From positions 1,280,001-1,344,000 of the forward strand of contig OZ255842.1 in the NCBI GenBank assembly GCA_965277805.1: a stretch of DNA of 64,000 nt. The letters are read 5' to 3'. Numbering within the stretch: the first letter of the stretch is position 1; each line of letters starts with the position of its first letter. The notes beneath the pieces are model-generated. The model saw only the letters and a program-made list of their open reading frames with translations. It was not told the origin of the DNA and ran no database searches. This DNA comes from Candidatus Lustribacter sp. Lineage in GTDB: Bacteria > Vulcanimicrobiota > Vulcanimicrobiia > Vulcanimicrobiales > Vulcanimicrobiaceae. Shown in pieces: positions 45,342 to 64,000 of the stretch. Made by a program: the position numbers and the translations under genes.

Positions 45342-46565
45342 GTGGCACGCGGCGAGATTATCGCTGGGCTAGACATCGGCACGACGAAAACGTGTGCCGT
45401 CATCGCCGCCTCGGGTCCCGACGGTTTGGAGATCATCGGGATCGGCGAAGCCCCCTCAACGGGCATGCGGAAAGGCGTCGTGACGGACCTCGAAGAGACC
45501 GTCCGGGCGATCGAAGCGGCGACCGAAAAGGCCGAGCGGATGGCTGGTGTCCACGTGTCGCACGTGTACGTCGGCGTCACCGGCGAGCATATCCAATCGA
45601 CGAACAATCGCGGCGTGGTCGCGGTCTCCGGTGAGGATCGCGAGGTCATTGCCGCCGACGTCAAGCGCGTCGTCGATGCATCGAAAATCATCAACCTCGC
45701 GGCCGACCGTCAAATCATTCACGCCTTGCCGCGGCATTACACGATCGACGGACAAGACGGCGTTACCGATCCGCTCGGGATGTCCGGCAGCCGCCTCGAA
45801 GTCGACACGCACATCATTACCGGCGGCGCGACGTTCATCGCGAACGTGCTCAAGTGCGTGCACCGCGCGGGCCTCGAACCGGCCGGCATCGTGTTCGAGC
45901 CGTTGGCATCGTCGGCGGCGACCCTGCTCTCGGAAGAGAAACACGTCGGCTGCGTGCTGCTCGACATCGGCGGCGGCACCACGGACATCGCGGTGTTCGC
46001 CAACGGCGGCGTGATTCACAGCGCCACGATTCCGGTCGGCGGCAACATCCTCAGCAACGACATCGCGTTGGGGCTGAAAACGACGTCGGCCGAAGCCGAA
46101 AATGTCAAACGCACGTACGGTTCGGGACTGACGCGTCCGGACGAAGCGGAACAGACGTTTCACGTGAAGACGCTCGACGGCCGCAGCACGCGCGAGGTCA
46201 CGTCGGGGCAGCTGCGCGCGATCGTGCTGCCGCGCGTGCTCGAGATGTTCCGCCTTGCAAAATCGAACATCGTCGAACATCTGCCGCGCGATCAAGTGCT
46301 GAGCGAAGTCGTCATCACCGGTGGCGGCGCGCACCTGCGCGGCATCGAAACGACGGCTGCCGAGATCTTCGGCCTGCCGGTGCGTTTGGGGGTTCCGGCG
46401 ACGATCGCCGGCTTGACCGATTCCGTCAAACAGCCGGAATACGCGACCGCCGTCGGCCTCGTGCTGTTCGGCCCGCGCGGCGAAGCCGCCCCGCATCTCA
46501 ACGGCCGCACCGGCGGCACCGCATTCGCCAAGCTTTGGACGTGGTTCACGTCCATCTGGAACTGA
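45342..46565 (+). CDS. ftsA: Cell division protein FtsA
   Basis: [36 protein letters not shown]. Confidence 0.98.
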
Positions 46566-46699
46566 GCGCGATGACGAGCGGCGATCCACAGTATTCGCCG
46601 TTTACACATCGTCCACAGAAGTCTGGACCGGCTAGGCCCCACCCATCGTCCGAACCAACTCTACTGCAAACTCGTCTCTTCCCGGAGGACCCGCACATC

Positions 46700-47773
46700 A
46701 TGGCCGACGCGAAACGTTTCGTCCCCGAACACGCCGCGACAATCAAAGTTCTGGGGCTGGGCGGCGGTGGTTGCAACGCCGTCAACCGCATGATCGAAGC
46801 CGGGCTCTCCGGCGTTGAGTTCTATGCAATCAACACCGACGTTCAAGCGCTTCGTTCATCGAGGACGGACAACACGGTGCAGATCGGTGCGAACCTCACG
46901 CGCGGTCTCGGCGCGGGCGCGAATCCGAACATCGGGCGCGAAGCCGCGGAAGAATCGCGCGAAGATCTCGCGATGCTGCTCGACGGTGCCGATCTCGTGT
47001 TCATCACGAGCGGCATGGGCGGCGGCACCGGTACGGGCGCGGCGGCAGTCGTGGCCGAACTCGCGCGCGAATCGGGTGCGCTGACGATCGGCGTGATCAC
47101 GAAGCCGTTCGCCTTCGAAGGCCGCAAGCGCATGCAGGCGGCCGAGCGCGGCATCGCCGATCTCGAAGCCAAATGCGATACGCTGATCACGATTCCGAAC
47201 GAGCGCATCCTGCAGATCATCGAGAAGCGCACGCCGCTCAACGAAGCGTTCGCGTACGCCGACGACGTGCTGCGTCAAGGTATTCAGGGCATCTCCGATC
47301 TGATCACGCAACCCGGGCTGATCAACCTCGACTTCGCCGACGTGAAGACGATCATGACGGATGCCGGCTCCGCGATGATGGGCATCGGTGAAGGTTCGGG
47401 CGAGCATCGCGCCGCCGACGCCGCGCAGAAGGCGATCGCTTCGCCGTTGCTCGAGACCACGATCGAAGGCGCGCGCGGCGTGATCTTCAACATCACCGGC
47501 GGCCCCGATCTTTCGATGTACGAAGTGAACGAAGCGGCCGACATGATCAGCCGCGCGGTCGACTCCGAAGCGCAGATCATCTTCGGCGCATCGATCGATG
47601 CGGCAATGCAAGGCCGCGTTCGCGTTACGGTCCTGGCGGCCGGCTTCGGCACGCGTCCGCTGCGCACGAGTTCGGCGCTCGGCTCATCCGCGCACCCGCT
47701 CGACTTCGACAAGATCGCTCCGGTCAACATGGACGACATCGAAGTTCCGGCGTTCCTGCGCTATCGGGCGTAA
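46700..47773 (+). CDS. ftsZ: Cell division protein FtsZ
   Basis: Start ATG 46700 after [32 protein letters not shown]-terminal IEVPAFLR. Confidence 0.99.
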
Positions 47774-47779
47774 GGCGAA

Positions 47780-48949
47780 GTGGTCGCGGCAGCGACGAGC
47801 GATCGGGCCATCGCGATTCGCCGCGAGATCCATCGTTTTCCCGAATTAGGCTTCGAAGAACATCGGACGTCGGCGCTGGTCGAGCGCGAACTCGACGAGC
47901 TCGGTATCGAGCATCGGCGGGTTGCAGGAACCGGCGTCGTCGGGGTGATTCGCGGCGCGTTGCCGGGCAAGACGGCGGGGCTGCGCGCCGACATGGATGC
48001 GCTGCCGATCGATGAAGACTCGGGCGAGTCGTGTGCGAGCGAGGTGCCGGGAAAGATGCACGCGTGCGGTCACGACGCGCACACCGCCATGCTCTTGGGC
48101 GCGGCGCGCGAATTGAGCGGCCGGCGCGCGACGTTGCACGGTAACGTCGTGCTGCTCTTTCAACCGGCGGAAGAAGGACCGGGTGGCGCGGAACCGATGA
48201 TCGCCGCCGGCGCGCTCGACGATCCGCGCGTCGATGCGATCACGATGCTGCACGTCGATCCGCGCCTGCCGACCGGCAAGATCGGCATCACGCCGGGTCC
48301 GGTGAACGCGGCCGCCGACGAATTGCATCTTACGATTCGCGGATCCGGCGGACACGGCGGTTATCCGCATCTCGCCGTCGACGCGATTCCGGCGGCTGCG
48401 GCGACCGTGCTGGCACTGCAAAATATCGCGTCGCGCGAAACGGATCCGTTTGCGTCGCTGGTCATCACGATCGGCACGATCGCGGGCGGTTACCGTAACA
48501 ACGTGATCGCGGATCGCGTGCAGATGACGGGGACGATTCGCACCTACGATCCCACGATTCGAAAGGGCATCGAAGCGCGCATCCGGCGCATCGCCGACGG
48601 CGTTGCGGCCGCGTATGCGTGCACCGCCGAGATCAACGTGGCGTACGGGTATCCGCCGGTGGTGAACAACGTCGCGCTCGCGCGCGCGTTCACCGACTAC
48701 GTGCGCGAACGCAACGGCACGCCGGTCGAACAGTTGCCGCCGACGATGGGCGCGGAAGACTTCGCGTATTTTGCCGAACGCGTGCCGGGCGTCGTGGCGC
48801 GGCTGGGCATCTATAACGAAGCGCTCGGGTCGGTGCACTCCGGCCACAGCCCGCAATTCCGGCTCGATGAGGCGGCGATTCCGACCGGCATCGCGACCCT
48901 GGTCGCCTTCGCCGAGGGCGTGACCTCGGGAGCGATCCAGCCGCAATAG
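47780..48949 (+). CDS. M20 family amidohydrolase
   Basis: HRFPELGFEE, LRADMDALP, MHACGHDAH, FQPAEE, EDF. Confidence 0.94.
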   Translation: MVAAATSDRAIAIRREIHRFPELGFEEHRTSALVERELDELGIEHRRVAGTGVVGVIRGALPGKTAGLRADMDALPIDEDSGESCASEVPGKMHACGHDAHTAMLLGAARELSGRRATLHGNVVLLFQPAEEGPGGAEPMIAAGALDDPRVDAITMLHVDPRLPTGKIGITPGPVNAAADELHLTIRGSGGHGGYPHLAVDAIPAAAATVLALQNIASRETDPFASLVITIGTIAGGYRNNVIADRVQMTGTIRTYDPTIRKGIEARIRRIADGVAAAYACTAEINVAYGYPPVVNNVALARAFTDYVRERNGTPVEQLPPTMGAEDFAYFAERVPGVVARLGIYNEALGSVHSGHSPQFRLDEAAIPTGIATLVAFAEGVTSGAIQPQ

Positions 48950-48987
48950 ATTGGGGATGCTTGGCCGCTTGCCCCAATATCTAGTGG
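48941..48987. promoter_or_regulatory. Tandem NrdR-box-like sites (31-bp spacing) upstream of the SRPBCC gene
   Basis: CCGCAATAGATTGGGG (48941) and CCCCAATATCTAGTGG (48972). Confidence 0.55.
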
Positions 48988-49030
48988 TTAAGGAAGGTTA
49001 AGCCTGCCGGCGGCGCCAAACATTTGCTGC

Positions 49031-49534
49031 ATGGCGGTCCCCGCGTATACGTTCGATCGCCCGTCGACTCGGGCGATCCACCGCGCTCAAGACGTCGCCT
49101 CGCCGGCGGCCACGGCGTTCGCAAGGATTTGCGAAGTGGAGAAGTGGCCGGTGTGGCTATCGTTTCTGCGCTCGGCGCGGCTCACCGAGCCGCACCTGCC
49201 GTTCGGCGAAGGCAGCGAGGTAGCGATCCGCTCGCGCTTGCCCGGCGAAGAGGAAGAGCTCTTCGAAGTCGACCGGTTCATCCCGGGTTTCCACATGTCG
49301 CTGGTCGGCGCGTTTTCGTGCCGGCGCCGGCTGGACTTCCGGGTCGAGCAGAAGTCCGAGCGCTCGAAGGTCGTGGTCAAGCTCGACTACCCGACCTACG
49401 GCGGAGTCGTCGCCGCCCTGGTCGACCGCCTCACGCTGCGGCGGAGACTCGAAACGGCGCTCGGCGACTCGCTGCTGCACTTCAAGGGCTTGGTTGAATT
49501 TGACCGCGAGGACGGCGTCCTGACCGATTTTTGA
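49031..49534 (+). CDS. SRPBCC/polyketide cyclase family protein
   Basis: F..I.EVEKWPVW motif and C-terminal helix L..FK.LVE. Confidence 0.8.
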   Translation: MAVPAYTFDRPSTRAIHRAQDVASPAATAFARICEVEKWPVWLSFLRSARLTEPHLPFGEGSEVAIRSRLPGEEEELFEVDRFIPGFHMSLVGAFSCRRRLDFRVEQKSERSKVVVKLDYPTYGGVVAALVDRLTLRRRLETALGDSLLHFKGLVEFDREDGVLTDF

Positions 49535-52053: not shown

Positions 52054-52143
52054 AGATCGCCACCACATTAGGCACCAAAGGCAGTCGGTTGCTTCGCCTA
52101 GATGGTACTCCGCCGGCAAGCCCCTTGTTTCAGGGATGGACGT

Positions 52144-52344
52144 TTAGCGGCGGCCCTGGCCCTCTTGCGGTGCAGATGACGCGGTAGCCCCGCGATCCGC
52201 TTCCGAGCGGCGTCGTCTTCGGAGAATCGCGCGCTGCGCGCGGCGCGTAGCCCACGACGTGAGGCGGTTCGGACAGTCGTCGCGATGATCGTGGTACGTG
52301 ATGCCGTCGCGCAAGGTAACAGTCGGGCAGTCGCAGGCGAACAT
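52144..52344 (-). CDS. Small hypothetical protein with CxC...HxH...C motif
   Basis: MFACDCPTVTLRDGITYHDHRDDCP; GGGTAC lies 9 nt before the ATG. Confidence 0.5.
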   Translation of the reverse strand: MFACDCPTVTLRDGITYHDHRDDCPNRLTSWATRRAQRAILRRRRRSEADRGATASSAPQEGQGRR

Positions 52345-52421
52345 ACGCGAAACGTACCCGCCGGTCGACGGGCCGGATCATGCGCATGTTCGGTGTGACA
52401 TCGCGCACCGTCGCGTGAGGC

Positions 52422-52658
52422 TTACCGCCCTGAATCGGGAACGTGCTGGACCACGAGCACGCCGTGGCTGCCAGCCGTAACGAGGTGTACGTCTTGTCGG
52501 AGGGTGCCAACGACCACTGCCGGCCCGTTGAAATCGTCAATATCTTCGATCTGCACGGGATCGCCTAGGCCGTCGTAGCCGTTCTCGTTGTCGGCGTATT
52601 TCTCCGAGCCGATATTGCCGAGGTCCATGTCCTGCTCGCAATTCGATAGCGGATTCAT
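52422..52658 (-). CDS. Small acidic hypothetical protein
   Basis: GC-rich third codon positions. Start ATG 52658 or 52628 (MDLGNIGSEKYADNENGYDG...). Confidence 0.45.
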   Translation of the reverse strand: MNPLSNCEQDMDLGNIGSEKYADNENGYDGLGDPVQIEDIDDFNGPAVVVGTLRQDVHLVTAGSHGVLVVQHVPDSGR

Positions 52659-52706
52659 CCGGCGGCCGGTTGCACACTGTTTTCCCGGCGCAAGCTCTTT
52701 CGACAC

Positions 52707-52940
52707 TCAAAAGGGGCGAAGTGCGCTTGCGCGCACTCGCACGAAGCGCTGGCAGTTCGAACACTTGGGTACGTAGGTGTCGGCAACGACTTCGGCCGTG
52801 GCTTCAGCGAGATGGGCGCGGCAAGCGGTGACGATGACGCGGCCAGCCTGCACGCGGAGCGATTCTGACTATCGCTCACCGAGGTCGAGATGCGCGCGGC
52901 TGGAAGCCGCCCGGACCCAACGCGCGGGCGCCTTGGTCAT
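52707..52940 (-). pseudogene. Small zinc-finger-like gene with in-frame TAG at codon 24; paralog of 53148..53444
   Basis: MTKAPARWVRAASSRAHLDLGER*SESLRVQAGRVIVTACRAHLAEATAEVVADTYVPKCSNCQRFVRVRASALRPF; about 45/69 identical to the divergent neighbour by manual alignment. Confidence 0.8.
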
Positions 52941-53147
52941 GGGCTAGTCTAGCTCGCCGGCCCGCGCGGACAAGTGTGACGGAGTGCCGTTTGTAACGTG
53001 ATCTTAGCGGCTACCAATCGGCGAGTGCGCGCATGCCACAGCCGAGGGCCCTTTCTGTCTTTTGGCTGTGAGCCGAACTAATGTGATCACACGCTAAGTT
53101 CCCGGTACAAATCAGCGAAGTGCGTCCGATCGGGGAAGACGTGGACA

Positions 53148-53444
53148 ATGACCACTTCGCTCCCACGCTGGGTCCGTGCCGCTACGGGCCGTGCTCACCT
53201 CGATCTCGGCGAACGGGCCGCTAAAAGTCTTCGCGTCCTATCCGAACACGTCATCGTGACGGCCTGCCGCGCACACGTCGACGCAAGAGCCGAGCCCGTG
53301 GCCGACAATCATCAGCCACTGTGCTCAAACTGCCAGCGCATCGCCCGCGTCCACGTAACACGACAGACTTCTGATATTTTTGGTGATCATCGGAGGCCGG
53401 CATCGCCGCCGGTGCGTGATCCTCTCGCGGAGAAAGGCCGGTAG
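53148..53444 (+). CDS. Small putative zinc-binding protein (H...C...CxxC)
   Basis: RAHLDL..TACRAH..CSNC; amino-acid conservation with the inverted paralog supports coding status. Confidence 0.75.
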   Translation: MTTSLPRWVRAATGRAHLDLGERAAKSLRVLSEHVIVTACRAHVDARAEPVADNHQPLCSNCQRIARVHVTRQTSDIFGDHRRPASPPVRDPLAEKGR

Positions 53445-53508
53445 CGCGCGCGGCCTTGCGAGGATGCCTGGCGTCACCAACTGCGCTTATCGCCGTGCGC
53501 CGAGAACG

Positions 53509-53529
53509 TGGGGAAGGTGGGACTCGAAC
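53509..53529 (-). repeat. att-like direct repeat: copy of the tRNA-Leu 3' end
   Basis: TGGGGAAGGTGGGACTCGAAC is identical to 56209-56229. Confidence 0.9.
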
Positions 53530-54039
53530 GCGCCCCTATAGGCGATAGTACAGCATGCTGGGGCCCTTCGCCGTACGCAACATGATAAGTTTTGACGAGC
53601 CAGGACGGCCGGCGGGTAGCAAACAGGTAGCCGGGATGACCCAATTCGACGTTCTTGCCCTGCCGCCTAAAAGAGCGGCCGATCGTTCATACCTGCTATG
53701 ACCTCACTCTTCAAGCCGAAGCGCTCACATGCCCGGCAACAGCCTCGCTAAAGTAGCTCTCAGCGTTGGGAGCGGATACTGCGCCAATTAGGTTTTCGGG
53801 CTCGATAGGAACCACGATTCCAGCAGCCTTTTTGTCTGAACGGCTCTATGTAGCGCCATATGTACGAGTCGTCGGATAGTTCTAGTGCCGCGCTCGGATG
53901 AGTCTTGTACCGTCCGACTAAGCGTATTTTGTCAGGCAGGTAGGTTGCGAAAGGCATCGCTGGTCCGGCGTCAGGTCCAGAGCGATTGGACGAGTGTGCA
54001 TACCGCGACCGTCGACATTGTTCCGCGGACCCCATTGTT

Positions 54040-54256
54040 GGATTTCCCGAGAACTCGCGACACCTGAGCGGGGTTCCAGGGGCCCGGTTCTGGTGGTTTG
54101 CGCGTCTCTGTTAAGCTGTTTAGCGATAGCGGCTAGCGACACGGAATCTATGAGCTCGGCGATCGTCTGCGCTATGTGGCTGTATGCAGATACGGCGCCG
54201 GCACTTATGACGGCAGACGCGATGGCGCGCCCTCGCGCGGGCGACATTAAAGCCAC
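54040..54256 (-). pseudogene. Remnant of a serine-recombinase C-terminal DNA-binding region
   Basis: IAELIDSVSLAAIAKQLNRDAQTTRTG, then a frameshift near 54080 to PWNPAQVSRVL; resembles the SL..IA..LN....T.RG..W...QV.RVL pattern. Confidence 0.65.
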
Positions 54257-54259
54257 CGG

Positions 54260-54757
54260 CTAAACTCGCGAGGTGGAAGGAGCTGGCCGCTTGCGATCGC
54301 GATACCATTTTTCGCTCTTCCCGTCGACAGCGCTTTGCAGTTCTCGGTATGCCGATCCAAGCTGGACTGCATTCGGCAATCCTAGAAGCGTAAACAGTCT
54401 GAGTGCGTACGGTGGGTGGATCCAGCCATCCCCATTGCATGCGTCTCGCACAGCTCTAGCGTTGCCCTGTGTAAGTTCCGGCGTGATGCGAGCGTCCAAC
54501 TCATCATCGCGCTGGCCCGCGATTTCCATTCCGACGTTCAGAAGAACGGCGAAACCTCTTCGAAAAAATTCGTCGGCCTCTGCTACTGCCGCTCCGAATT
54601 CTGGATCGTCACGTACTGATTTCACGGCGATGCCCCTCGCAACTGGTGCAGGACATGCCCTTAGCGATAACGCGTATAAATCCTCATCAGCCGACGACGA
54701 GGCGTCGATTCGTAGTCTGATCTGTACGGCAGCGCGGAACCGAATCGCAAGGTTCAT
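54260..54757 (-). CDS. Hypothetical protein (island cargo)
   Basis: 165-aa ORF in the island; no recognisable motif. Confidence 0.55.
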   Translation of the reverse strand: MNLAIRFRAAVQIRLRIDASSSADEDLYALSLRACPAPVARGIAVKSVRDDPEFGAAVAEADEFFRRGFAVLLNVGMEIAGQRDDELDARITPELTQGNARAVRDACNGDGWIHPPYALRLFTLLGLPNAVQLGSAYRELQSAVDGKSEKWYRDRKRPAPSTSRV

Positions 54758-55069
54758 CCGCCCGGTATTAGCCCTGGAGTATAACCAGCCAGGGAAGACC
54801 CGTATCGGGCGATCGCAACCTCCGCGTGCCGACGTCAGAGATTAGGCCGATTCGGACAGTTGCAAAAGAAGACCGCGTGCCAACCGATCGCGCCATCCCC
54901 GTCGCGTGGGTGCTAGTGTATGACGTTCATGACGCGGTGAGGGCGCTGCGTAGGTTGGCGAGCGGGGTCCTCAGAGGGGGTCATCGTGACAGACCACCCT
55001 TTGGGGTTCCAAATCGTAGCTGCAATTCGGTAAAGCTAGCGGCCGCAGTGTGGTCGGCGATTGTTGATA

Positions 55070-55738
55070 TTATTCCGGCGAGCTCCAGCGCAGGTCTGTG
55101 CATCCCTCCGCTAGTGCCTGCTCTACGACGCGCTCAGTAAGTAGCCGCTTCGAAGACAAATTCTTTCCGTAAGAGGCGATCACTGGAGATCTTTCGCGTG
55201 CCCTCTGCTTCGCCGTAGACTCGCTAAAGGCCATTACGATCACCGCGTCATCCCAGGTTACACGTTTACCGACTTTGTACGCGTATGGCGGCAAGGCGGA
55301 GGCTATTCGTGCCAAGGTAGCTTCGTCGATTGGTGAACGCCACGCGCAGGCACGAATCAGTTCATCCCATTGGTGACTAACCGTTTCGCGGTACATATTC
55401 AGCTCGGCACGTTCTCTGATATAGTATTGCTCTGCAAGTGCGAGGTTGTCCGGCCGAAGGAAGTAGTGCGTATCGAATTCATTGTCCGATACAAGCTCTA
55501 AAATCTCAACATGGAACGCACTCTCGCCGTCTACGCTGTAACGCGCAAACAATAGCGCGTCTCCGCTCTCTGGCAAACCCGCGCGCATTTTTCGAAAATG
55601 ATCGCGCAGCCGGCGCCCTATGTCTTTCGCCTCACCGACATATCGCTGCCCCGTGTCGGTATGCACAATGGCATATATGCCACTCTGGTCGATGAATTCG
55701 AGAGCTTGCTCCATCAGGCTGCGCTGCTCCATACTCAC
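55070..55738 (-). CDS. GIY-YIG nuclease family protein
   Basis: SGIYAIVHTDTGQRYVGEAKDIGRRLRDH, FHVEILE, EQYYI..LN. Confidence 0.88.
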   Translation of the reverse strand: MSMEQRSLMEQALEFIDQSGIYAIVHTDTGQRYVGEAKDIGRRLRDHFRKMRAGLPESGDALLFARYSVDGESAFHVEILELVSDNEFDTHYFLRPDNLALAEQYYIRERAELNMYRETVSHQWDELIRACAWRSPIDEATLARIASALPPYAYKVGKRVTWDDAVIVMAFSESTAKQRARERSPVIASYGKNLSSKRLLTERVVEQALAEGCTDLRWSSPE

Positions 55739-56208
55739 TTTTAGTCCTCACGGGATGGAGAGACGCTGCAGTATTGGGTCCGCAATCTGCCCAAGACTTC
55801 GAGGCAGAGATCGCGCAGGAGCTAACCGTTAATCGTAAGGACGCCCCGCAAGGCACGAAATCGCCGCTTGAGGCGCGAAGCGTCTGGGATGCCCGCAGCC
55901 TAACACCGTCATCCAGAACCGATTCGAAATGCTCCTTGCTCGGGTCGTTCGCTGCTCCTTGGTAACGCGAATACTTTCGTCGAGCCCGACGTTCCGGGCA
56001 CCACGCGACAACGGTCCGGTACACTGAGCCTTGACGACCTCGGGCCGCCGTTACCCCGCGACTCGGATCATATGGTTCCCGCCGGCGGACGCAGATAACG
56101 CGCTTCCGAAGACCTGACGGACTTGTCAGACGACGAAGCGCTAGACATTGTGGCGGGTCTCAAGCCCTCCGAGAGGGGCAAGACGCCACGGAGTAAGGGT
56201 TATTTGAA

Positions 56209-56291
56209 TGGGGAAGGTGGGACTCGAACCCACATGAGCTCTCACTCGGCTGCTTTTGAGGCAGCTGCGTCTACCATTTCGCCACTTCCCC
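56209..56291 (-). tRNA. tRNA-Leu (anticodon CAA)
   Basis: GGGGAAGTGGCGAAATGGTAGACGCAGCTGC-CT-CAA-AA-GCAGC, long variable arm, GTGGGTTCGAGTCCCAC-CTTCCCCA; CCA not encoded. Confidence 0.97.
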
Positions 56292-56336
56292 GGGCGCCTT
56301 GGGCGGTTCGCGGCTGACCGCTCGCACTCTTCTCGA

Positions 56337-57647
56337 TCAAACCATCGCGGTTTCGTGGCGTTCGACGACCTGGCGCACGATCTCCGCGTTCGGAACGCCA
56401 TCCGGCGCGACGACATCGAACGACAGCAACTCGCCGAACCGGTTCTGCGTGGCGTCGCGGACCAGGCCGATCGGTTCACGACCGGCCTTCAAGTCGTCGA
56501 TCGCTTTCAGCATCAAACGCCGAGCGGCGGCGATCGCGATGTCGCTCGTGGCGAGATGTTCCTTGGTGCGATTTTGGATGCGGCCGGGCGTTTCGGTTGC
56601 AAACGCGTCGTGCGTGTTGAAGTTAGTGCCCATCCCGGTGAAGTTTTCGTTCATCTTCGTGCGGTCTTGCATGAAGCGATTCGCTTGCGAGCGCGTGATG
56701 TGGTACTCATCGGAATACTCGCCCGGTTTGCGGAGGTGGTTGGGCAGACGGTGATCGTCGCTCAACGGTTGATCGCGGCGGACGAAGAAATTCCAGCGCC
56801 AGTGCGTTTGGTCGTCGATCGGCACGTGGAAGTGTCCGATTTGCCCGTCGCCGCCTTGCGGGCCCGCGATGACGGAGAAGTTCGGCATCCCGAAGTAGGT
56901 CACGCGCAAGTACTTGCGTCCCAGGCCCGCCGTGCGGTTCTGAAAGATGCGCACGCCGAACGCGGTGTCTTCCACTTCCAGGCGCGCGGGTTCGGCCGGA
57001 TTGATGTCGGCGAGCACCACGTCATCTTTCGCCATGCCCACCACGCGCAGCGCGCCGAAATTGAGTCCGGGACGACGGTTGGGATCGAATGATTTGTGCA
57101 AGAACCCCACGTGCGAGGGATCGTAGTTGCCCTCGTTCGCTTGCAAGTAGTTGCAGTCGATGAAGAGCTTGTGCACGTGGATGTTCGGTTCGGGATACGT
57201 GAAAAAATCGTAGTTCGGAAATACGGGCGGCTCGCCCGGGCCCATGTAGCAGAAGAACGCACCGGCACGTTCGACGACCGGATAGGATGTCTGGCGAATT
57301 TTGTCTTTGAACGTGCTCTCTTTCGGCTCTGCCGGCTGTTCGAGACATTTCCCGGTGACGTCGTAGAGCCAGCCGTGATAGAGACAACGCAGCCCGCCGT
57401 CTTCGAGCCGGCCGAACGAGAGATCGGTGCCGCGGTGACAGCAATGACGATCGAGCAAGCCGACGCGATGCTGCTGATCGCGGAAGAGCACGAGCTCTTC
57501 GCCGAGGATATCGACCGGCACCGGTGCGCCGCCGGCCGGCAATTCGCTTGAAAGCGCGATCGGCTGCCAGTACCGGCGCAAGAGTTCGCCGCCGGCGGTT
57601 CCCGGGTTGGTGCGCGTGAGCGCGTCGTTCTGTTCCTGCGTCAACAT
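56337..57647 (-). CDS. Rieske non-heme iron oxygenase (phthalate 4,5-dioxygenase/LigXa-like)
   Basis: Start ATG 57647; LLRRYWQP, CCHRG..CLYHGW, EGNYDPSHVGFLH. Confidence 0.93.
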   Translation of the reverse strand: MLTQEQNDALTRTNPGTAGGELLRRYWQPIALSSELPAGGAPVPVDILGEELVLFRDQQHRVGLLDRHCCHRGTDLSFGRLEDGGLRCLYHGWLYDVTGKCLEQPAEPKESTFKDKIRQTSYPVVERAGAFFCYMGPGEPPVFPNYDFFTYPEPNIHVHKLFIDCNYLQANEGNYDPSHVGFLHKSFDPNRRPGLNFGALRVVGMAKDDVVLADINPAEPARLEVEDTAFGVRIFQNRTAGLGRKYLRVTYFGMPNFSVIAGPQGGDGQIGHFHVPIDDQTHWRWNFFVRRDQPLSDDHRLPNHLRKPGEYSDEYHITRSQANRFMQDRTKMNENFTGMGTNFNTHDAFATETPGRIQNRTKEHLATSDIAIAAARRLMLKAIDDLKAGREPIGLVRDATQNRFGELLSFDVVAPDGVPNAEIVRQVVERHETAMV

Positions 57648-57715
57648 CGCTGCGATCCTCCGGCGGCTACGGGTAACGTGCTTATTGTTGCATGATTGAA
57701 CGACCTTCGCTGCGA

Positions 57716-60700
57716 TCACGCCGGCGCCGGATGCGCGGCTAACCACTGCCGTTCGGCCGTCGCTAAGGCTTGGGCGGCGGAAAGCCCGAGCGTGCGGGCG
57801 AGCGCGTAGGTGGTGCGGAGGGTACCCGATGATGCGACCAGCGCGAGCGTGCCGTTGCTGCCGTAGCGCGTCCAGGTCGCCTGCGCGACGGCTGCCGGCG
57901 CCCAACTCACGACGATCGTTTCGCGCGGAGTCCAGGCCATGAATGCCGGACTCGTCGTCACCGTTGCTGTTGCGGGAGCCTGAAGCGCCGATAGCGTGAC
58001 CGCACGCTGATCCGGTGCGGTCCCTTCGAAGCTCACGCGTTCGTCGACGATGAGTCGCGTCGCGCCGGCGGCGAGCCGCACGGTTTTCTCGAAGCGCGCA
58101 CCGCCGCCGAGGTCCGGCGCGTCGTAGGTGAAGCGTACGACGGCTTCCGCGCCCGTGGCGCGCACGATCTGCGTGCGATACGCGCGATTGAAGGTACCGG
58201 CGGGATAGGTGTGCGTGTACTTTGCGATGCGATCGGTCGTCGAAGGCGGCGGCGGCAGCAGCACGTCGTCGCGTAACGCACCGGTCGCGTTGACCGCGTT
58301 GTACGGCAACGCACTGCGCGCGGCGAAGACGATGAGCCGTGCGCCGCCGCCGGGAGCGAAGATCGCCACGATGCGATCGTTCGCGAGCGTCACCGTCCGG
58401 TCGCCGCTGCCGAATGCCGAACCCACGATGACACGCGCGACGCCGGGCACGACGGACGGCAGCGCCACGTGCACGGTTTGGCGCGCGTTGAGCGCCACCG
58501 AAGGTTCGTTCGCGCGCGCCGGGTTCGGACCGCGCATGGGCAGCGTGCCCGTTGCCGGCGGCGCGCTGCCGCCGAGCACGATCAGACGCGCGTCGCGCGG
58601 CGCCACGGTAAACGGCGGCACGTCGAAGGAACCGATGCCGGTCCACGTGACGCCGCCGAAGCGGCGGGGCGAGTTCGACCAGTTTGCCGCGACCCCGAAG
58701 GTGGCGTCGGGTCCGGCTAACACGGCGATGCCGCTGCCGAGTTGGTTCGGTACTTGCGCGCGAATCGCGATCCGCAGTTGCGCCAGGCTCCGTAGCCGCG
58801 CCGCGATTGCGGGCAGCGGCGGACGAACGAACGGCGGGACCACGATCGTGCGATATCGCCGCAGGCGCGCATCGCTCGAGAAGCGCAAGTCGACGACGTC
58901 GCAGGTGAGGCCGCGCGTGTTGCACGTGCGCAGCGCCGCCTTCAATTCGGCCGCGATCGCGCCGATGTCGTCGTTGGAAAGCGCCGCCGGATCGGACGCG
59001 CTGACTTCGTCGGCGATCGCGATCGTTGCGACCCGATGCGTCGCGGCCAGCAACGCACCGTATCGCCGGACCTCGTCACCGAAACGTTGGGTCGGTGCCC
59101 AGCGGGCCGGACGGCTGCGCAGCAACGCGTCGGGGTCGCGCGGAATCGCTGCGTCCCAACTGTAGAAGGCATTGGAGAACGGCGCTTCCCAGCCGAACGG
59201 CGCGAGCGTGTCTTGCAGCGGAAAGTCGACCACGCCGTGCACGCCCCAGCTCAGCATTTCGGCCAGTGCCAGCGTGGTGTTCGACGGATCGGCCGGACGC
59301 GGCAGCGGATCTTCGGGCGAGGCGAGCCAGCCGGCTTGAAACTCGCTCGACGCCGGGGGCACGCGTTCTTGCGTCGTCAACGTCGCCGTTGCGAAATCGA
59401 GTTCGACGCGATCGTGATCGCCGATCGAGTAGGCGTCGCTCTGGTACCAGTTGCCCATCGCCCACACGGGCGACGCCGCCGGCACTTTCATATCGTAGGT
59501 GTTGATGAACGTCGGCACGACGGGGCCTGTCACGCTGCGCACCTGCGTATCGAGCCAATGCAGATATGCTTGAAAATGCGGCGCGGGCCAGGTCTGATTG
59601 TCGATGTAGGCGCCCTGATCGTCGTCCAGCGCCACCGCGATCACGAGATCCGCGTACGGCACGAACTCCGCCAGCGCGTGATGCAGCCAGCGCGCCGCAT
59701 AATAGCGATGGGTTGCGTTGCGCATCCACTCTGCGGCTGCATCGTCGCTGTGCGCGTTTTGCAGCGTGGCGGTGGCGGGATAGCGCCCTTCGAGGATGTC
59801 GTGCAGCGGCATCCCGTACGCGGGCCGGCGCAGGAGCCACGCCGGATAGCCGCCGTTACGCCACTCGTTGCGAATCACGGGGCCCGGCCGCACGATCAGG
59901 TGAAAGTGCAGCTCGCGCGCCAACTGCAGCACCCGGCGCAGATTGCGGCGCGGGTTCGTATGGCCGTCGAAGTCGAATTTGCCGTCGGATGTTTCGTGCC
60001 AGTTCCACGGCACGTAGAGGTCGAGGGTGTTGGCGCCGGCGGCGCGCATGGCGACCATCGAGTCGCGCCAGCGTTCGGGCGGAATGCGTTCGTAGAAGAA
60101 CGCGCCGCCGAAAAAGAAGAACGGCTTGCCATCGACGAGCAGCTGCGGCGTGCCGTCGCGCTGCACGACGCGCGCGTGCGTGAACGTCGCCGCTTCGGCG
60201 CCGCGCGGTACGGTCGCGAACGCCAGAAGCAGCAGCGCGGCGGCGATCGCGAAGGGCCAGGTCGCTCGCACGCGCGCGCGGATCAGAAAGATCACTGCGC
60301 CCGCGGCCAGCGTCGCGGTGCCGAAGGCCATCGCGATTAGCCCCGAGCTCCAGAAGAGAAAGAACCAGGCGGCGAGCGCGACGATGACCGGCAACGGGTA
60401 GAGCGGCAGACGATATGGCGCCGGCTCGGCGCGCATGCGCAGCACCATAACCGCGAGGTTCCCGCCGACGCCCTGTACCAGCACGAGCCCGGCCGTGAGC
60501 GCGTTGATCACCGCGTCCAGCGGAAAGAGCGTGGCCGGCAACGCCAAGAGCCCCAGCGCGAGCAGCGAGATGTGCGGAAAGCGTTTCGTCGCGTGCAGCC
60601 GCGCGAAGGGCGCCAGGAAATCGCCGTCGCAGGCGGCGGCGTACGGCACGCGCGAGGCGCCGAGCAAACCGCCGTATACTGAAGCAAAGCAGGTGACGAG

Positions 60701-61558
60701 GATCGTTACCGTGATGACGACGGCGGCCGCATGTCCGGCAGTTCGCTCCACAGCTTGCGAGGCGACGAAGGTCGAGTGTGCGACCTCGCTGAGCGAGAGC
60801 GCGGAGAAGACGCCGAGGTTCAGCGCGACATAGGCCACTCCGGTGATGAGGATCGAGATGACGACGGCGAGCGGAATCGTGCGGACCGGCGCGATGACTT
60901 CGTCGCCGATTTGCGGCACGCTCTGGTATCCGGCATAGTCGTAGAGGGTGTAGACCATCGCGGCACCGAGCGCAACGACGTTCAGACCGCGCAGCGAAAA
61001 GGCCGGCGCGAGCAGCGCTCCCACCGGTTGCGTGGGGTGGAAGAACCCGCACGCGGCGATTGCAACCAACGTGAGTACGGCGATCGCGCTGAGCGCGAGC
61101 GCGGTGCGGGCGATGTGCGGAATCTTCTGGTAAAGCGCCCAGAGCGTGACGACGCCGACGCCGAGCGCGACGGCGTGCGCGGCGATGGGCTGGGCCAACA
61201 CGGGAACGAGATAGGCCGCGTACTGCGCGAAGCCGATGTATCCGCTCGCGATCGACAGCGGCAGCGCGAAGAGGTACTGCCAGACGAATATGAAGGCGAC
61301 GATGCGTCCCGGTCCGTGCGCGCCGAAGGCTTCGCGCAGATAGGCGTAGGTGCCGCCGCTACGCGGAAAGCGCGACGCGAGCTCGGCATAGCACAAGCCG
61401 TCGCACAGCGCCACGAGGGCGCCGGCGATCCACGGCCAGATCGTGATCGAGCCGTGCATCGCCGCGACGACGAGCGGGATCGTGATCAGCGGTCCCGCGC
61501 CGACGATCGTCGCGACGTTGATCGCGACGGCGCTGCGCAGCCCGACCCCGCGGATCAA
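57716..61558 (-). CDS. APC-family permease fused to a GH35-like glycoside hydrolase with C-terminal beta-rich domains
   Basis: Approx. aa 1-430: IVGAGP, YAELASRFPRSGGTYAYLREAFG, YDYAGY, SRVPYAAA. Then LLVDGKPF..GG.FFY.RIP..W, NTLDLYVPWNWHE..G.FDF.G, VRPGP.I..EW..GGYP.WL, EFQAGW. Confidence 0.9.
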   Translation of the reverse strand: MIRGVGLRSAVAINVATIVGAGPLITIPLVVAAMHGSITIWPWIAGALVALCDGLCYAELASRFPRSGGTYAYLREAFGAHGPGRIVAFIFVWQYLFALPLSIASGYIGFAQYAAYLVPVLAQPIAAHAVALGVGVVTLWALYQKIPHIARTALALSAIAVLTLVAIAACGFFHPTQPVGALLAPAFSLRGLNVVALGAAMVYTLYDYAGYQSVPQIGDEVIAPVRTIPLAVVISILITGVAYVALNLGVFSALSLSEVAHSTFVASQAVERTAGHAAAVVITVTILVTCFASVYGGLLGASRVPYAAACDGDFLAPFARLHATKRFPHISLLALGLLALPATLFPLDAVINALTAGLVLVQGVGGNLAVMVLRMRAEPAPYRLPLYPLPVIVALAAWFFLFWSSGLIAMAFGTATLAAGAVIFLIRARVRATWPFAIAAALLLLAFATVPRGAEAATFTHARVVQRDGTPQLLVDGKPFFFFGGAFFYERIPPERWRDSMVAMRAAGANTLDLYVPWNWHETSDGKFDFDGHTNPRRNLRRVLQLARELHFHLIVRPGPVIRNEWRNGGYPAWLLRRPAYGMPLHDILEGRYPATATLQNAHSDDAAAEWMRNATHRYYAARWLHHALAEFVPYADLVIAVALDDDQGAYIDNQTWPAPHFQAYLHWLDTQVRSVTGPVVPTFINTYDMKVPAASPVWAMGNWYQSDAYSIGDHDRVELDFATATLTTQERVPPASSEFQAGWLASPEDPLPRPADPSNTTLALAEMLSWGVHGVVDFPLQDTLAPFGWEAPFSNAFYSWDAAIPRDPDALLRSRPARWAPTQRFGDEVRRYGALLAATHRVATIAIADEVSASDPAALSNDDIGAIAAELKAALRTCNTRGLTCDVVDLRFSSDARLRRYRTIVVPPFVRPPLPAIAARLRSLAQLRIAIRAQVPNQLGSGIAVLAGPDATFGVAANWSNSPRRFGGVTWTGIGSFDVPPFTVAPRDARLIVLGGSAPPATGTLPMRGPNPARANEPSVALNARQTVHVALPSVVPGVARVIVGSAFGSGDRTVTLANDRIVAIFAPGGGARLIVFAARSALPYNAVNATGALRDDVLLPPPPSTTDRIAKYTHTYPAGTFNRAYRTQIVRATGAEAVVRFTYDAPDLGGGARFEKTVRLAAGATRLIVDERVSFEGTAPDQRAVTLSALQAPATATVTTSPAFMAWTPRETIVVSWAPAAVAQATWTRYGSNGTLALVASSGTLRTTYALARTLGLSAAQALATAERQWLAAHPAPA

Positions 61559-63465
61559 GCGGTCAATCCGAACACGTCACGATAGAATTGCAGCTCGCGC
61601 TCGAGCACCCGTACGATCGTCTCGGCCTTACGGAAGCCGTGGCCTTCGCCTTCGAACGCTTCGTAGACGACCGGCACGTTGCGCGCGATCAACGCGTCGC
61701 GCATCGCGGTCGCTTGATTGGGCGGCACGACGCGATCGTCCAGGCCCTGGAAGAGCAGCACCGGCACGTCGATCGTCGCCACGTGGTTCACCGGGGAGCG
61801 CTCGCGATAGCGCTCGAGCGTTTGCGGCAACGGGCCGACCAACCCGTCGGTGTAACGCGCTTCGAACTTGTGCGTGTCGGCGGCCAGCGCTTCGAGCTCC
61901 ATCACGCCGTACAGGCTGACCGCGGCCGCGAAGACGTCCGATGTGGCGACGGCGAGCAGCGCGGTCATGCCGCTGGCGCTGCCGCCGCGAATCGCGATTT
62001 GCGCGGGATTACAGCGGCCGCTCTCTGCCAGCGAGCGTGCCACGTTGATGCAGTCGCGGACGTCGATCTCGCCCCATGCGCCGGCGAGCCGTCCGCGGTA
62101 GGTGCGTCCGAAGCCCGAGGAGCCGCGGTAATTGACGTGCGCGACCGCAAAGCCGCGCGAGGTGTAAAATTGAATCCCAATGTTGAACGCGTTGGTGTGC
62201 ATCGAGGTCGGCCCGCCGTGGCTCATCACGATCAGCGGGGGCCGCTCGCCCGCCGGACCTGCGTAGCGCGCGTTTCGTGGCGGATAGAAGAACGCGTGCA
62301 CGTCTTCCCCGTCATCGGAGCGAACCGTCAGCGCTTCGCCGATGCTCACGCCGTCAGCCTCGAGAACTTGCGCGCTCGCCGCACGCACGACGGTGTGCGA
62401 CGGATCGCCGATCTTCGGCGCGTAGCACACGGCGGCCGGCGCGTCCGGCGGTGCCGCGAGATAGACCGCGCCGTCGCGAAAGGGCAGCGGCGTGGTGTCG
62501 ACGGGGCCGTACGGCAATTCGCGCACGGTTCCGGACGCGATCAAACCGGGGTGCACGCTCCCGTCGCGCACGTAGGCGCATAGCACGCGCGCATCGTCGA
62601 GCGGCGCGATCATCGCGCGGCCGAACACCCACGGCGGTTCGGCAAACTCCGCCGCCAGCGGCGCGAGCGCGTCGATGCGGTCGCCGTGCAGCGCGTAGAC
62701 ATTCCACCAGTTCGTGCGGTCGGAGGTGAAGAGCAGCGTTCCGTCCGGCGTCCACGCCGCGGCCACGATCGCTTCGCCGCCGCCTTCACCCGCGACGCAG
62801 CGCGTTTCGCTCGAGCTGCCGTCCCGCGCCACGCGGGCGACGTAGAGCCGCGTCGCATCCCACGGCATGCCGGGGTGATTCCAGGCGATCCAGGCCAGCT
62901 TCGTTCCGTCGGGCGAGAGCTGCGGCGCGAGCACGAAGTCGGTTCCGCCGGCGACGATGGTACCCGCGTTCGCTGCGGCTTCGACACCGCCGGCCATCGA
63001 GAAGACGACGATTGCGTTGTCGGGCGCGGTCGGCGGACGGTCGCGGTGATCTTCGCGCACCGCGTAGACCCGTTCGCTCGCGACGTCGATCGCGAACCCG
63101 GCGTAGCGGCAGCCCGGCACCGCGATCAGGGCCCGCGGCTTGCGCCCGGCCTCGGCGAGCCACACGCTGCCGTCACTGCGCTCCGAGTACACGACCCGGC
63201 CGTCGCGCACGGCGTATGCTCCGCCGCCGTACTCGTGCACGCGATCGCCCACGTCGGCGGACGGGGGCAGCACGTCGTGGGGCGGATGGCCGGGTGACCA
63301 GCGCACGAGCGCTCGGCGGCCTCGCTCCGCCGGACGCAGCTCGAGCCAGGTCACGGTGTCGCCGTCGACGGCGAGTTCCGAGAACGCGAGGGTCGCACCG
63401 GAGACCAGCTGCGGGGTCACCGTTGAGTCCCACATCCCGAAGCGCGCGACGGTCGTACCTTCCAT
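61555..63465 (-). CDS. S9 family (prolyl oligopeptidase-like) peptidase
   Basis: Start ATG 63465; HEYGGG, HGGPT, NYRGSSGFG, GGSASG, DRVVP, EGHGF. Confidence 0.93.
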   Translation of the reverse strand: MEGTTVARFGMWDSTVTPQLVSGATLAFSELAVDGDTVTWLELRPAERGRRALVRWSPGHPPHDVLPPSADVGDRVHEYGGGAYAVRDGRVVYSERSDGSVWLAEAGRKPRALIAVPGCRYAGFAIDVASERVYAVREDHRDRPPTAPDNAIVVFSMAGGVEAAANAGTIVAGGTDFVLAPQLSPDGTKLAWIAWNHPGMPWDATRLYVARVARDGSSSETRCVAGEGGGEAIVAAAWTPDGTLLFTSDRTNWWNVYALHGDRIDALAPLAAEFAEPPWVFGRAMIAPLDDARVLCAYVRDGSVHPGLIASGTVRELPYGPVDTTPLPFRDGAVYLAAPPDAPAAVCYAPKIGDPSHTVVRAASAQVLEADGVSIGEALTVRSDDGEDVHAFFYPPRNARYAGPAGERPPLIVMSHGGPTSMHTNAFNIGIQFYTSRGFAVAHVNYRGSSGFGRTYRGRLAGAWGEIDVRDCINVARSLAESGRCNPAQIAIRGGSASGMTALLAVATSDVFAAAVSLYGVMELEALAADTHKFEARYTDGLVGPLPQTLERYRERSPVNHVATIDVPVLLFQGLDDRVVPPNQATAMRDALIARNVPVVYEAFEGEGHGFRKAETIVRVLERELQFYRDVFGLTA

Positions 63466-63518
63466 GCGCCGGTCTTTGCCGGTGGAACTGCTCCGCTCCG
63501 CCTCGCGTTGAGGCTGGT

Positions 63519-64000
63519 GTGACATCTTCGTTTCGCCGTCTGTTTGCCTGCGTTGCCGCGCTGACGCTTCTGGCCGTGCCGCTGACCGCGTCATCGCAAG
63601 ATACCGCCGGCGGGGTCAACATCGCGCACGCGACGCTCTCAAACGGGCTGCAGGTCTACGTGCTGCAAGACCGCCTCTCGCCGGTCGTCTCGATGTACAC
63701 GAACTACCTGACGGGCGCTAACGACGAGCCGATCACGGGCCTCGCCCACGCGCAAGAGCACATGATGTTCCGCGGCAGCAAGACGATCGACGCATCGCAG
63801 TTCTCCGATACCACTGCGATCACCGGCGGATCGTACAACGCCGATACGCAGAACGAGATCACGCAATATTTCTTCGAGATGCCCGCGCAGTATCTCGACA
63901 TAGCGCTCAACCTCGAACGTTCGCGCGCGACCGGCATCCTCGATGCGCAGAGCGGCTGGGACGCCGAACGCGGCGCGATCACGCAGGAAGTCGTGCGCGA
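63519..64000 (+). CDS. M16 (pitrilysin) family peptidase, 3' end outside window
   Basis: Not in the ORF track. GTG 63519, signal peptide, TLSNGLQV, GLAHAQEHMMFRGS (HxxEH), NADT, ERGAI.QE. Confidence 0.92.
   Translation, partial: MTSSFRRLFACVAALTLLAVPLTASSQDTAGGVNIAHATLSNGLQVYVLQDRLSPVVSMYTNYLTGANDEPITGLAHAQEHMMFRGSKTIDASQFSDTTAITGGSYNADTQNEITQYFFEMPAQYLDIALNLERSRATGILDAQSGWDAERGAITQEVVR

Follow-up and report, generated by a model that had tools for sequence, protein, structure and literature searches.

A conserved single-ORF fusion of a LAT-like permease and a GH35-related module in one family of Eremiobacterota/Vulcanimicrobiota

Analysis of a 64,000-nucleotide stretch of contig OZ255842.1 of Candidatus Lustribacter sp. 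(the window) revealed a single open reading frame (ORF) in which a permease of the APC superfamily is followed by a glycoside hydrolase (GH) module related to family GH35. Our results indicate that this fusion is real and that it is an envelope protein of two modules, inherited vertically within one family of the Eremiobacterota/Vulcanimicrobiota. The protein can be read as a LAT-like permease, an export signal and a GlmA-like glycosidase; this reading taken as a whole, with its inferred enzyme activity and coupled uptake, is given slightly less than an even chance. The conserved arrangement of transporter and glycosidase in a single ORF and the uncharacterised GH35 branch with three consecutive aspartic acids (D-D-D) are novel, the parts being drawn from the known APC superfamily and from known GH35/clan GH-A enzymes. 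A full-text literature search, supplements not covered, found no description of an APC-GH35 fusion or of a transporter and exported glycosidase in a single chain. Automatic annotations label these proteins 'amino acid transporter'. Coordinates of all features are listed in Table 1.

The fusion gene and its reading frame

A first-pass annotation, made from the sequence alone, had described an uninterrupted ORF of 1280 codons, and the frame was confirmed to be free of stops. The sequence details quoted there, namely the RARVRATWPF end of the permease, the hydrophobic segment, the AxA site and the EFQAGW motif, are all present; ALDDD is present as well (residues 643-647), its position being corrected from about 59615-59630 to 59618-59632. 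The TGA at which the upstream S9-peptidase ORF stops (61555-61557) and the TTG start of the fusion ORF (61556-61558) overlap, and the minus strand over this overlap reads ...GGATTGACCGC-TTGA-TCCGC... (also given as ...GCTTGATCC). A longer N-terminus is impossible because of an in-frame TGA at 61577-61579, and the N-terminal start is shared with relatives (consensus MIRGVGLRS / MIRGVGLRSAVAINV). The gene is present as a single copy in its own genome.

A search with the exported part of the protein gave 791 relatives among 8000 scored candidates, and the 120 relatives listed were classified by the position of WNWHE. Among these 120, 78 are fused with the same junction (mostly 1270-1430 amino acids), 41 are without the permease (816-1029 amino acids) and one is unclassifiable. 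The same fused frame and conserved junction in relatives from many assemblies argue against the explanation that the long ORF was produced by faulty assembly, by a frameshift or by an accident of this strain, or that it is a pseudogene, and we consider that explanation refuted. Likewise, of the 149 matches listed for other genomes, 96 fall within an open frame that runs for at least 1200 codons (92 of 142 when unpublished genomes are left out), and the permease was found directly upstream of, and in line with, the module in all 13 long-frame loci examined. The junction is also crossed by a read-derived contig of 1384 nt (59867-61250), in which neither a difference nor a gap was found. A stop or frameshift near 60250-60270, named earlier as the mark of an artefact, was found neither in this contig nor in the fused relatives, and the earlier claim of a real fusion stands. 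Nothing was found in favour of an artefact; the sole caveat is that the contig derives from two runs of one sample, possibly the sample behind the assembly, and is perhaps not independent of it.

Distribution of the fusion

The exported module was identified in 195 of 206 sampled genomes of the organism's own family and in none of 94 genomes of 20 other families. The phylum sample comprised 301 genomes (Eremiobacterota/Vulcanimicrobiota), including eight unpublished ones that all match; without these the count for the family is 187 of 198. Of the 80 best loci in named public records, 66 bear the label Eremiobacterota/Vulcanimicrobiota or that of a genus of this phylum, and the other 14 carry unspecific or other labels, which may be binning errors. 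An Atlas search returned only the protein's own cluster, with 97 members from Vulcanimicrobiota and the same Pfam architecture. According to record titles, which serve as a lead only, many of the named relatives are metagenome-assembled genomes with bog, palsa or fen in the isolate name.

The permease half

Analysis of the N-terminal 430 residues placed them in the APC superfamily. The Pfam model AA_permease_2 (PF13520) matched residues 6-412 above its gathering score and over the whole 12-transmembrane (TM) core (1.8e-29; 103.4 bits against a cutoff of 27; profile positions 2-415 of 427). A G-A-G motif occurs in TM1 and Y206-D207-Y208-x-G-Y in TM6. In a PDB search, residues 3-441 aligned with 12-TM carriers of solved structure, the best being the SLC7 light chains xCT (1.2e-29), LAT1 (5.8e-26), y+LAT1 and b0,+AT, followed by BasC (5.8e-18), AdiC and GkApcT. 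The trusted cutoff of the LAT family model TIGR00911 was missed (112 bits against 701.8), as were those of TIGR00909 (117.2 against 556.8) and of the FrlA fructoselysine transporter equivalog NF008466 (59.5 bits against 800). By its best PDB matches the permease thus appears LAT-like, yet it falls in no curated subfamily. Asp207 lies in the substrate region of TM6, where xCT has alanine in the alignment, and would fit a cationic permease substrate. The permease is 45-65% identical to its orthologues, a range equal to that of the GH part, which indicates that it is kept under constraint.

The junction and the location of the module

Hydropathy analysis revealed 12 hydrophobic segments ahead of residue 430, the 13th following at 434-450. 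The permease ends in ...RARVRATWPF (residues 427-436) and is followed by AIAAALLLLAFATV, PRGAEA and ATFTHA. A common junction was found in the fused relatives, consisting of R-A-R-x-x-R-x-W-P-F, a hydrophobic stretch, P-x-x-A-x-A and A-T-F-T-H-A; WPF is nearly invariant among them and the sequence of the hydrophobic region (h-region) itself is variable. In the profile of the predicted cleavage site, built from the 75 fused relatives with recognisable flanks, proline occurs at position -6 in 54, alanine at -3 in 56 and alanine at -1 in 54, and positions -2, -4 and -5 are variable. The junction therefore has, at an internal position, the positive n-region, the h-region and the small residues at -3 and -1 of a Sec-type signal peptide.

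Several lines of evidence from the sequences place the GH module outside the cytoplasmic membrane. Lysine and arginine number 16 on the predicted inner loops of the permease and three on the predicted outer loops. A classical signal peptide (e.g. M-x-R-x-x-G-L-R-S, a hydrophobic stretch and A-x-A) was found at the start of the majority of the 41 unfused relatives and, likewise, of the 15 distant ones with an N-terminal match; the relatives without such a peptide are truncated or mis-started ORFs. The exported part has only two cysteines, C879 and C886, both invariant in 58 fused proteins, and such a pair would fit a disulphide in an oxidising compartment. Both termini are cytoplasmic in LAT and APC structures, so homology to these 12-TM carriers leaves the 13th segment to cross outwards. 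The earlier proposal that the extra helix puts the hydrolase outside agrees with all of this. A cytoplasmic module, with a 13th segment that does not span the membrane or with an odd permease topology, is very improbable against the loop charges, the signal peptides of unfused orthologues and distant relatives, the invariant cysteine pair and the aligned carriers with both ends inside. What speaks for it is that the closest solved relatives, GlmA and IaSGT, are cytosolic, IaSGT being described as having no signal peptide (PMC8861115).

The AxA site had been noted earlier together with an attached hydrolase. The site is conserved as P-x-x-A-x-A, which suggests possible removal of the module by signal peptidase, and the attachment is the part of the earlier view that may not hold. 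Continued cutting is expected to keep such a pattern; it could also be a remnant of an ancestral signal peptide. Cleavage by signal peptidase I after A456 is predicted from the motif with even chances. If cut, the polyprotein would give a permease of ~47 kDa with an extra C-terminal helix and a periplasmic enzyme of ~88 kDa, made together; the alternative is a permanently tethered single chain. Processing of this kind has a precedent in the Bradyrhizobium cytochrome b/c1 precursor FbcH, a polyprotein whose internal signal peptide is the point of cleavage. FbcH likewise combines a polytopic membrane protein, an internal signal peptide and a periplasmic protein in one ORF; the differences are that cleavage is only predicted here and that the partners are a transporter and a glycosidase.

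Fold and domains of the exported module

The exported module comprises 824 residues. The Pfam model Glyco_hydro_35 (PF01301) matched residues 472-579 above its gathering score (2.1e-32; 113.4 bits against a cutoff of 27), this assignment to GH35 covering only profile positions 1-104 of 319. Among PDB sequences GlmA is the top match (1.5e-33), with similarity confined to the first ~110 residues of the barrel. The equivalog cutoff of the GlmA model NF041127 was missed (112.8 bits against 1500; profile positions 9-114 of 782), and a search of the PDB with the family profile gave no significant alignment past the first third of the barrel. Consequently, the catalytic assignments given below lean on predicted strand order.

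An AlphaFold2 model of the module was built on a 43-sequence alignment (mean predicted local distance difference test, pLDDT, 91.6; predicted template modelling score 0.93). Foldseek ranked four archaeal GlmA structures first, then the GH35 beta-1,2-glucosyltransferase IaSGT and then GH35 beta-galactosidases. VIA-align matched GlmA 5gsl with Z 35.9 over 481 residues at a root-mean-square deviation of 2.9 Å and 5gsm with Z 35.5 over 498 residues at 3.2 Å, these matches spanning model residues 1-551; human beta-galactosidase 3thc gave Z 33.4 over 326 residues. The superposition on GlmA and GH35 beta-galactosidases proposed earlier thus identified GlmA as the closest solved structure by sequence, Foldseek and VIA-align alike. 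In the model, GlmA domain I has its counterpart in the barrel (residues 457-840) and domain II in the alpha/beta domain (841-1000).

The last 240 residues lie outside the GlmA alignments and are recognised by no Pfam model. Foldseek matched them to YeaD 2htb (E 6e-6, TM-score 0.63), GalM and C-terminal domains of GH38. This mutarotase-like domain is as conserved as the barrel and has invariant polar residues, among them R1096, D1097, D1109, T1115, R1125, Y1127 and D1149. Judging by the model, it may bind sugar at a second site, or it may form part of the catalytic pocket, to which its conserved loop 1111-1127 may contribute.

The predicted active site

Enzymes of clan GH-A have two catalytic glutamic acids, on strands beta4 and beta7 (PMC6566704). 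In TkGlmA these are Glu179 (acid/base) and Glu347 (nucleophile); Asn-Glu is replaced by Asp178-Glu179, the C2 amine is bound by Asp178, and the D178N variant is inactive (PMC6566704). The statement in the first-pass annotation that GlmA has aspartic acid for asparagine and binds a free amine is in agreement with that report. Glucose-specific IaSGT has asparagine at the Asp178 position (PMC8861115), and aspartic acid before the acid/base residue selects 2-NH3+ where asparagine selects 2-OH (PMC6566704, PMC8861115). The catalytic pair of human GH35 beta-galactosidase is Glu188/Glu268 (PMC6566704).

Assignment of secondary structure in the model with DSSP revealed eight barrel strands, with beta4 at module residues 184-188 and beta7 at 282-287. 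The beta7 nucleophile of clan GH-A is represented by E739, according to its strand position in the predicted model and its conservation, and the EFQAGW motif described earlier as intact is indeed so, E739 being invariant in 58 fused proteins. At beta4 the Asn-Glu motif of GH35 is replaced, and Asp647 follows Asp646. The aspartic acid that precedes the acid/base residue in GlmA has a counterpart in D646, aligned to Asp178 in a stretch that is weak alone. The family profile pairs v-l-a-v-q-L-D-D-D-q with i-i-s-v-s-I-D-D-E-p of GlmA, in register in three GlmA sequences. By model and alignment, D646 occupies the position of the amine-binding Asp178 and D647 that of the acid/base Glu179. With ALDDD in place of QxENE, as observed earlier, a counterpart of the amine-binding aspartic acid is therefore present; the replacement of the acid/base glutamic acid by aspartic acid had been noted then and not weighed.

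Analysis of the 43-row alignment, which extends to relatives at just 26-35% identity, revealed aspartic acid at the acid/base position in 42 rows, the preceding aspartic acid in 40 and the beta7 glutamic acid in 42. Y515, E565, N686, E739, Y799 and the three aspartic acids D645, D646 and D647 are invariant in the 58 fused proteins and correspond to the residues given for the -1 subsite of GlmA and IaSGT. An invariant pocket means strong selection, which argues for a working site.

Comparison with known systems

GlmA is the best match in sequence and structure, and both proteins have a barrel plus an alpha/beta domain and an Asp-Asp before the acid/base position, including the residue that in GlmA binds the 2-amino group of glucosamine (GlcN). 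The two differ in the acid/base residue itself (glutamic acid in GlmA, aspartic acid here) and in the nucleophile motif and spacing, with 92 residues from D647 to E739 against positions 179 and 347 in GlmA. Furthermore, the mutarotase-like C-terminal sandwich is not covered by the GlmA alignment, and the module is exported, fused to a permease and bacterial, whereas GlmA is archaeal. The GH35 beta-galactosidases GLB1 (3thc), BgaC (4e8c/4mad) and the Bacteroides enzyme 3d3a align with Z 31-33 over ~320 residues at 2.4-2.7 Å. The spacing of 92 residues from beta4 to the nucleophile resembles that of human Glu188/Glu268, and the nucleophile motif of GLB1, S-E-F-x-x-G-W, is the one found in the fusion module. 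These enzymes have E-N-E at beta4 where the module has D-D-D, their accessory domains differ, and 104 of the 319 Pfam positions are matched.

In the overall plan, the protein resembles the SLC7/SLC3 heteromeric transporters LAT1-4F2hc and b0,+AT-rBAT, which also combine a 12-TM LAT carrier, one helix with its N-terminus in and C-terminus out, and an outside TIM barrel of a glycosidase fold. In those transporters two chains are joined by a disulphide (PMC7584034, PMC7159911), whereas here one chain is translated and is possibly cut afterwards. The SLC3 type of heavy chain, a separate, disulphide-linked type-II chain with a GH13-like ectodomain, does not describe the fusion, whose ectodomain matches GH35, GlmA and GH42 and has a conserved catalytic pocket. 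By this analogy the resemblance is one of architecture only and does not imply homology of the ectodomains. Escherichia coli FrlA belongs to the same APC superfamily, and some fused relatives are automatically labelled 'fructoselysine transporter'; however, the match to the FrlA model is weak and no frl-type genes are conserved beside the fusion gene.

Loss of the permease and related secreted proteins

In a FastTree phylogeny of 171 barrel sequences, all 81 fused and 50 unfused close relatives fall in one clade (137 rows, support 98), and the long secreted proteins fall outside it. The fused or unfused label needs 18 changes within this clade, at least 14 of them forced by well-supported branches, and some of the 'unfused' rows are probably truncated gene calls (e.g. 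P0003, P0040 and P0047). Many unfused proteins begin with M-x-R-x-x-G-L-R-S like the permease start MIRGVGLRS (MYRGVGLRSAV in P0077). The simplest reading of these sequences is repeated in-frame deletion of TM1-TM12, the permease N-terminus becoming the n-region of a new signal peptide. Such repeated removal of 12 TM segments, with the first ~10 residues of the permease left as n-region, would be a natural example of domain loss creating a secreted protein.

A stand-alone permease, 51-53% identical and ending just after W-P-F, was found elsewhere in four of five 'unfused' genomes. The loci are L046 1802-4365, L045 2152-6966, L047 and L048, two of them in unrelated contexts. A single fission by duplication as the source of the stand-alone permeases is not supported, since in the permease tree these cluster together with some of the fused proteins (P0135, P0128). 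In genome G144 the stand-alone permease sits 12 bp behind a SIS-domain (FrlB/AgaS-like) gene, and in G232 it adjoins a secreted GH20 hexosaminidase; both are single cases and were not used. The SIS-domain homologue of the organism's own genome is ~0.95 Mb from the fusion gene.

A wider set of secreted proteins (P0158-P0231; 1100-1350 residues) is 26-40% identical over the barrel and shares D-D-D and E-[FY]-Q-A-G with the fusion module. Pfam recognised only their first ~105 residues as GH35 and gave a weak GLMA_2nd match in three of the 12 scanned. Judged by their sequences, these proteins make up a GH35-related branch that is uncharacterised and lies outside the family of this phylum.

Proposed function and alternative explanations

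The sequence evidence shows the N-terminal 430 residues to be a 12-TM LAT-like permease and the 13th segment to take the remaining chain across the membrane. In the proposed mechanism, the module would act as a retaining beta-glycosidase in which E739 is the nucleophile and the D645-D647 cluster stands in for Asn-Glu, and from its sequence and model we lean towards the view that it is an active enzyme of this kind. The -1 site would receive a sugar with a 2-amino group, e.g. GlcN-type units from chitosan-like or deacetylated glycans. This specificity, which follows from the match of D646 to the amine-binding Asp178, is proposed tentatively by analogy to GlmA. The permease would import the amine-bearing product or the aglycone, with cleavage and import coupled in space at 1:1 stoichiometry; this coupled import is plausible, at somewhat less than an even chance. 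A cleave-and-import machine in the full sense, with the catalytic ectodomain on, or 1:1 beside, a LAT-type carrier that imports the freed 2-amino sugar or amine aglycone at once, is unlikely. Prediction of a complex between permease residues 1-430 and module residues 456-1000, each with its own alignment, gave a score of 0.00, which is evidence for neither side.

Several results weigh against the proposed mechanism. The acid/base glutamic acid common to clan GH-A enzymes is aspartic acid here, so activity is not assured, and we know of no characterised clan GH-A enzyme with aspartic acid as acid/base. The pairing of D-D-D with the D-D-E of GlmA depends on where the strands lie in a predicted model and on a profile stretch without significance of its own (i-Evalue 7 to 78). 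The permease reaches no NCBIfam equivalog cutoff, which leaves its specificity unassigned by profiles. Among the conserved neighbours of the fusion gene no amino-sugar catabolic gene was found. Finally, the repeated loss of the permease indicates that the exported module can work without an attached one.

This last result also favours the explanation that the two halves are unrelated or only loosely related. The fusion would then have arisen when a permease gene ran into a downstream secreted GH35-like gene and would be kept only for co-expression and export of the enzyme; the permease would import ordinary amino acids, and the enzyme would have a glycan as substrate, perhaps an envelope polymer of the cell itself in view of the near-universal presence of the gene and its location among housekeeping genes. 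We regard this explanation as rather unlikely, though as the foremost of the alternatives. Removal of the permease with retention of the enzyme in at least 14 changes agrees with it, as do the stand-alone permeases in unrelated neighbourhoods in four of five 'unfused' genomes, the distant enzyme relatives that are all plain secreted proteins, the housekeeping character of the conserved neighbours and the occurrence of the gene in 195 of 206 genomes of the family. However, most lineages have retained the fusion across 45-50% sequence divergence with both halves equally conserved, and acidic residues occur at inferred substrate-facing positions in both (D-D-D in the module, D207 in TM6 of the permease).

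Quite unlikely is the explanation that the ectodomain is a non-hydrolytic accessory, such as a ligand receptor, stabiliser or regulator, and the protein a single-chain analogue of SLC7/SLC3. The SLC3 heavy chain has one TM segment and an inactive alpha-glucosidase-like ectodomain, 4F2hc and rBAT having lost catalytic residues. In the fusion, by contrast, the nucleophile glutamic acid and every -1 subsite residue are invariant, and the fold families differ (GH35-like against GH13-like). Moreover, unfused forms with signal peptides are maintained without an attached permease, and the conserved signal-peptidase motif favours release of the module. An accessory role would nevertheless agree with the SLC7 light chains (xCT, LAT1, y+LAT1 and b0,+AT) as best solved relatives of the permease, with the matching topology of 12 TM segments, an N-in/C-out segment and an outside TIM barrel as in heteromeric transporters (PMC7584034, PMC7159911), and with the family-wide absence of the canonical acid/base glutamic acid.

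If the two halves of the fusion do cooperate as proposed in the mechanism above, the protein would be a compact means of capturing the products of the cell's own extracellular enzyme, which bears on carbon and nitrogen acquisition in a widespread and almost uncultured phylum. The cleave-and-import machine, if true, would be a prokaryotic working counterpart of the SLC7/SLC3 architecture, in which eukaryotes keep a dead glycosidase domain, and would include the first clan GH-A enzyme with an aspartic acid general acid/base and the first APC carrier for a free amino sugar. The fusion also offers a bacterial point of comparison for animals, where the association of LAT carriers with ectodomains of a glycosidase fold is unexplained. 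Invariant Asp-Asp-Asp, replacing Glu-Asn-Glu or Asp-Asp-Glu, marks a GH35 branch that includes the secreted 1100-1350-residue proteins of other bacteria, and it raises the enzymological question of which residue serves as acid/base catalyst.

Genomic neighbourhood

Table 1. Features of the fusion gene, its product and the neighbouring region (positions in the window; residues of the fusion protein).
Feature	Position	Strand	Basis or remark
Fusion ORF	57716..61558	(-)	1280 codons, TTG start, no internal stop
APC-superfamily LAT-like permease, residues 1-430, 12 hydrophobic segments	60269..61558	(-)	Pfam PF13520, hydropathy, PDB relatives, residues invariant among 58 fused proteins
Cytoplasmic linker RARVRAT, residues 427-433, predicted positive n-region of internal signal sequence	60260..60280	(-)	
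13th hydrophobic segment W434-V450 (17 residues; WPFAIAAALLLLAFATV), predicted h-region of internal signal peptide or signal anchor	60209..60259	(-)	
c-region P451-R-G-A454-E-A456; predicted signal-peptidase I site A456/A457	60191..60208	(-)	
GH35-type (beta/alpha)8 barrel, residues 457-840	59039..60190	(-)	Pfam PF01301 partial, AlphaFold2 model, VIA-align
D645-D646-D647, directly after barrel strand beta4	59618..59626	(-)	Model DSSP, profile alignment
E739 in S-E-F-Q-A-G-W on beta7, predicted catalytic nucleophile	59342..59344	(-)	
Alpha/beta domain like GlmA domain II, residues 841-1000, with C879 and C886	58559..59038	(-)	
Low-confidence linker, residues 1001-1040, length varies among relatives	58439..58558	(-)	pLDDT <50 at module residues 548-562
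Galactose-mutarotase-like beta-sandwich and C-terminal helix, residues 1041-1280	57719..58438	(-)	Separate AlphaFold2 model, pLDDT 89.9
S9 (prolyl-oligopeptidase family) peptidase ORF, upstream	61555..63594	(-)	TGA overlaps TTG of fusion ORF
tRNA-Leu(CAA), conserved downstream neighbour	56209..56291	(-)	~1.4 kb from fusion gene here
FtsA and FtsZ end of cell-division cluster, then M20 peptidase and Polyketide_cyc2	45342-49534	(+)	

The upstream S9 peptidase has no signal peptide and no hydrophobic N-terminus and is therefore probably cytoplasmic. Its listed ORF opens with ~45 charged low-complexity residues, and the true start may be the methionine of MEGTTVARF. The coupling of the two genes had been taken in the first-pass annotation as a hint of glycopeptide scavenging. 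This hint was not borne out and the peptidase was rejected as a conserved functional partner, since it is adjacent in only one of 20 other genomes, the one of the same genus; these 20 were picked for long contigs and for representing both architectures, not at random. In most other genera the usual upstream neighbours are CofD-like, cystathionine-beta-synthase-like and Cys/Met-metabolism pyridoxal phosphate (PLP) enzyme genes and a divergent PF00756 esterase, and the usual downstream neighbours are MerR, an EPSP-synthase-like gene, a Polyketide_cyc2 protein and an M20 peptidase. The conserved neighbours point to no substrate.

In the window, the M20 and Polyketide_cyc2 genes are found downstream at 47780-49534, past an insert of lower G+C content. 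Their conserved downstream position in other genera indicates that the region is syntenic despite the insert. A tRNA-Leu(CAA) gene occurs directly downstream on the same strand in all 12 loci of relatives scanned (L005, L014, L025, L028, L033 and L038-L044). It starts 7 nt after the stop codon in L028 and is 1.1-1.4 kb away in the window and in L025 of the same genus. The identical odd C-terminal tail of several unfused ORFs is explained by gene callers reading into this tRNA gene. The segment at ~52100-57700, between the 3' end of the tRNA-Leu gene and the conserved downstream neighbours, has a G+C content of 0.54-0.63 against 0.65-0.72 in the fusion gene. Its ORFs are without a family match, except for a partial GIY-YIG domain at 55070-55738, and the segment may be an element integrated at the tRNA gene.

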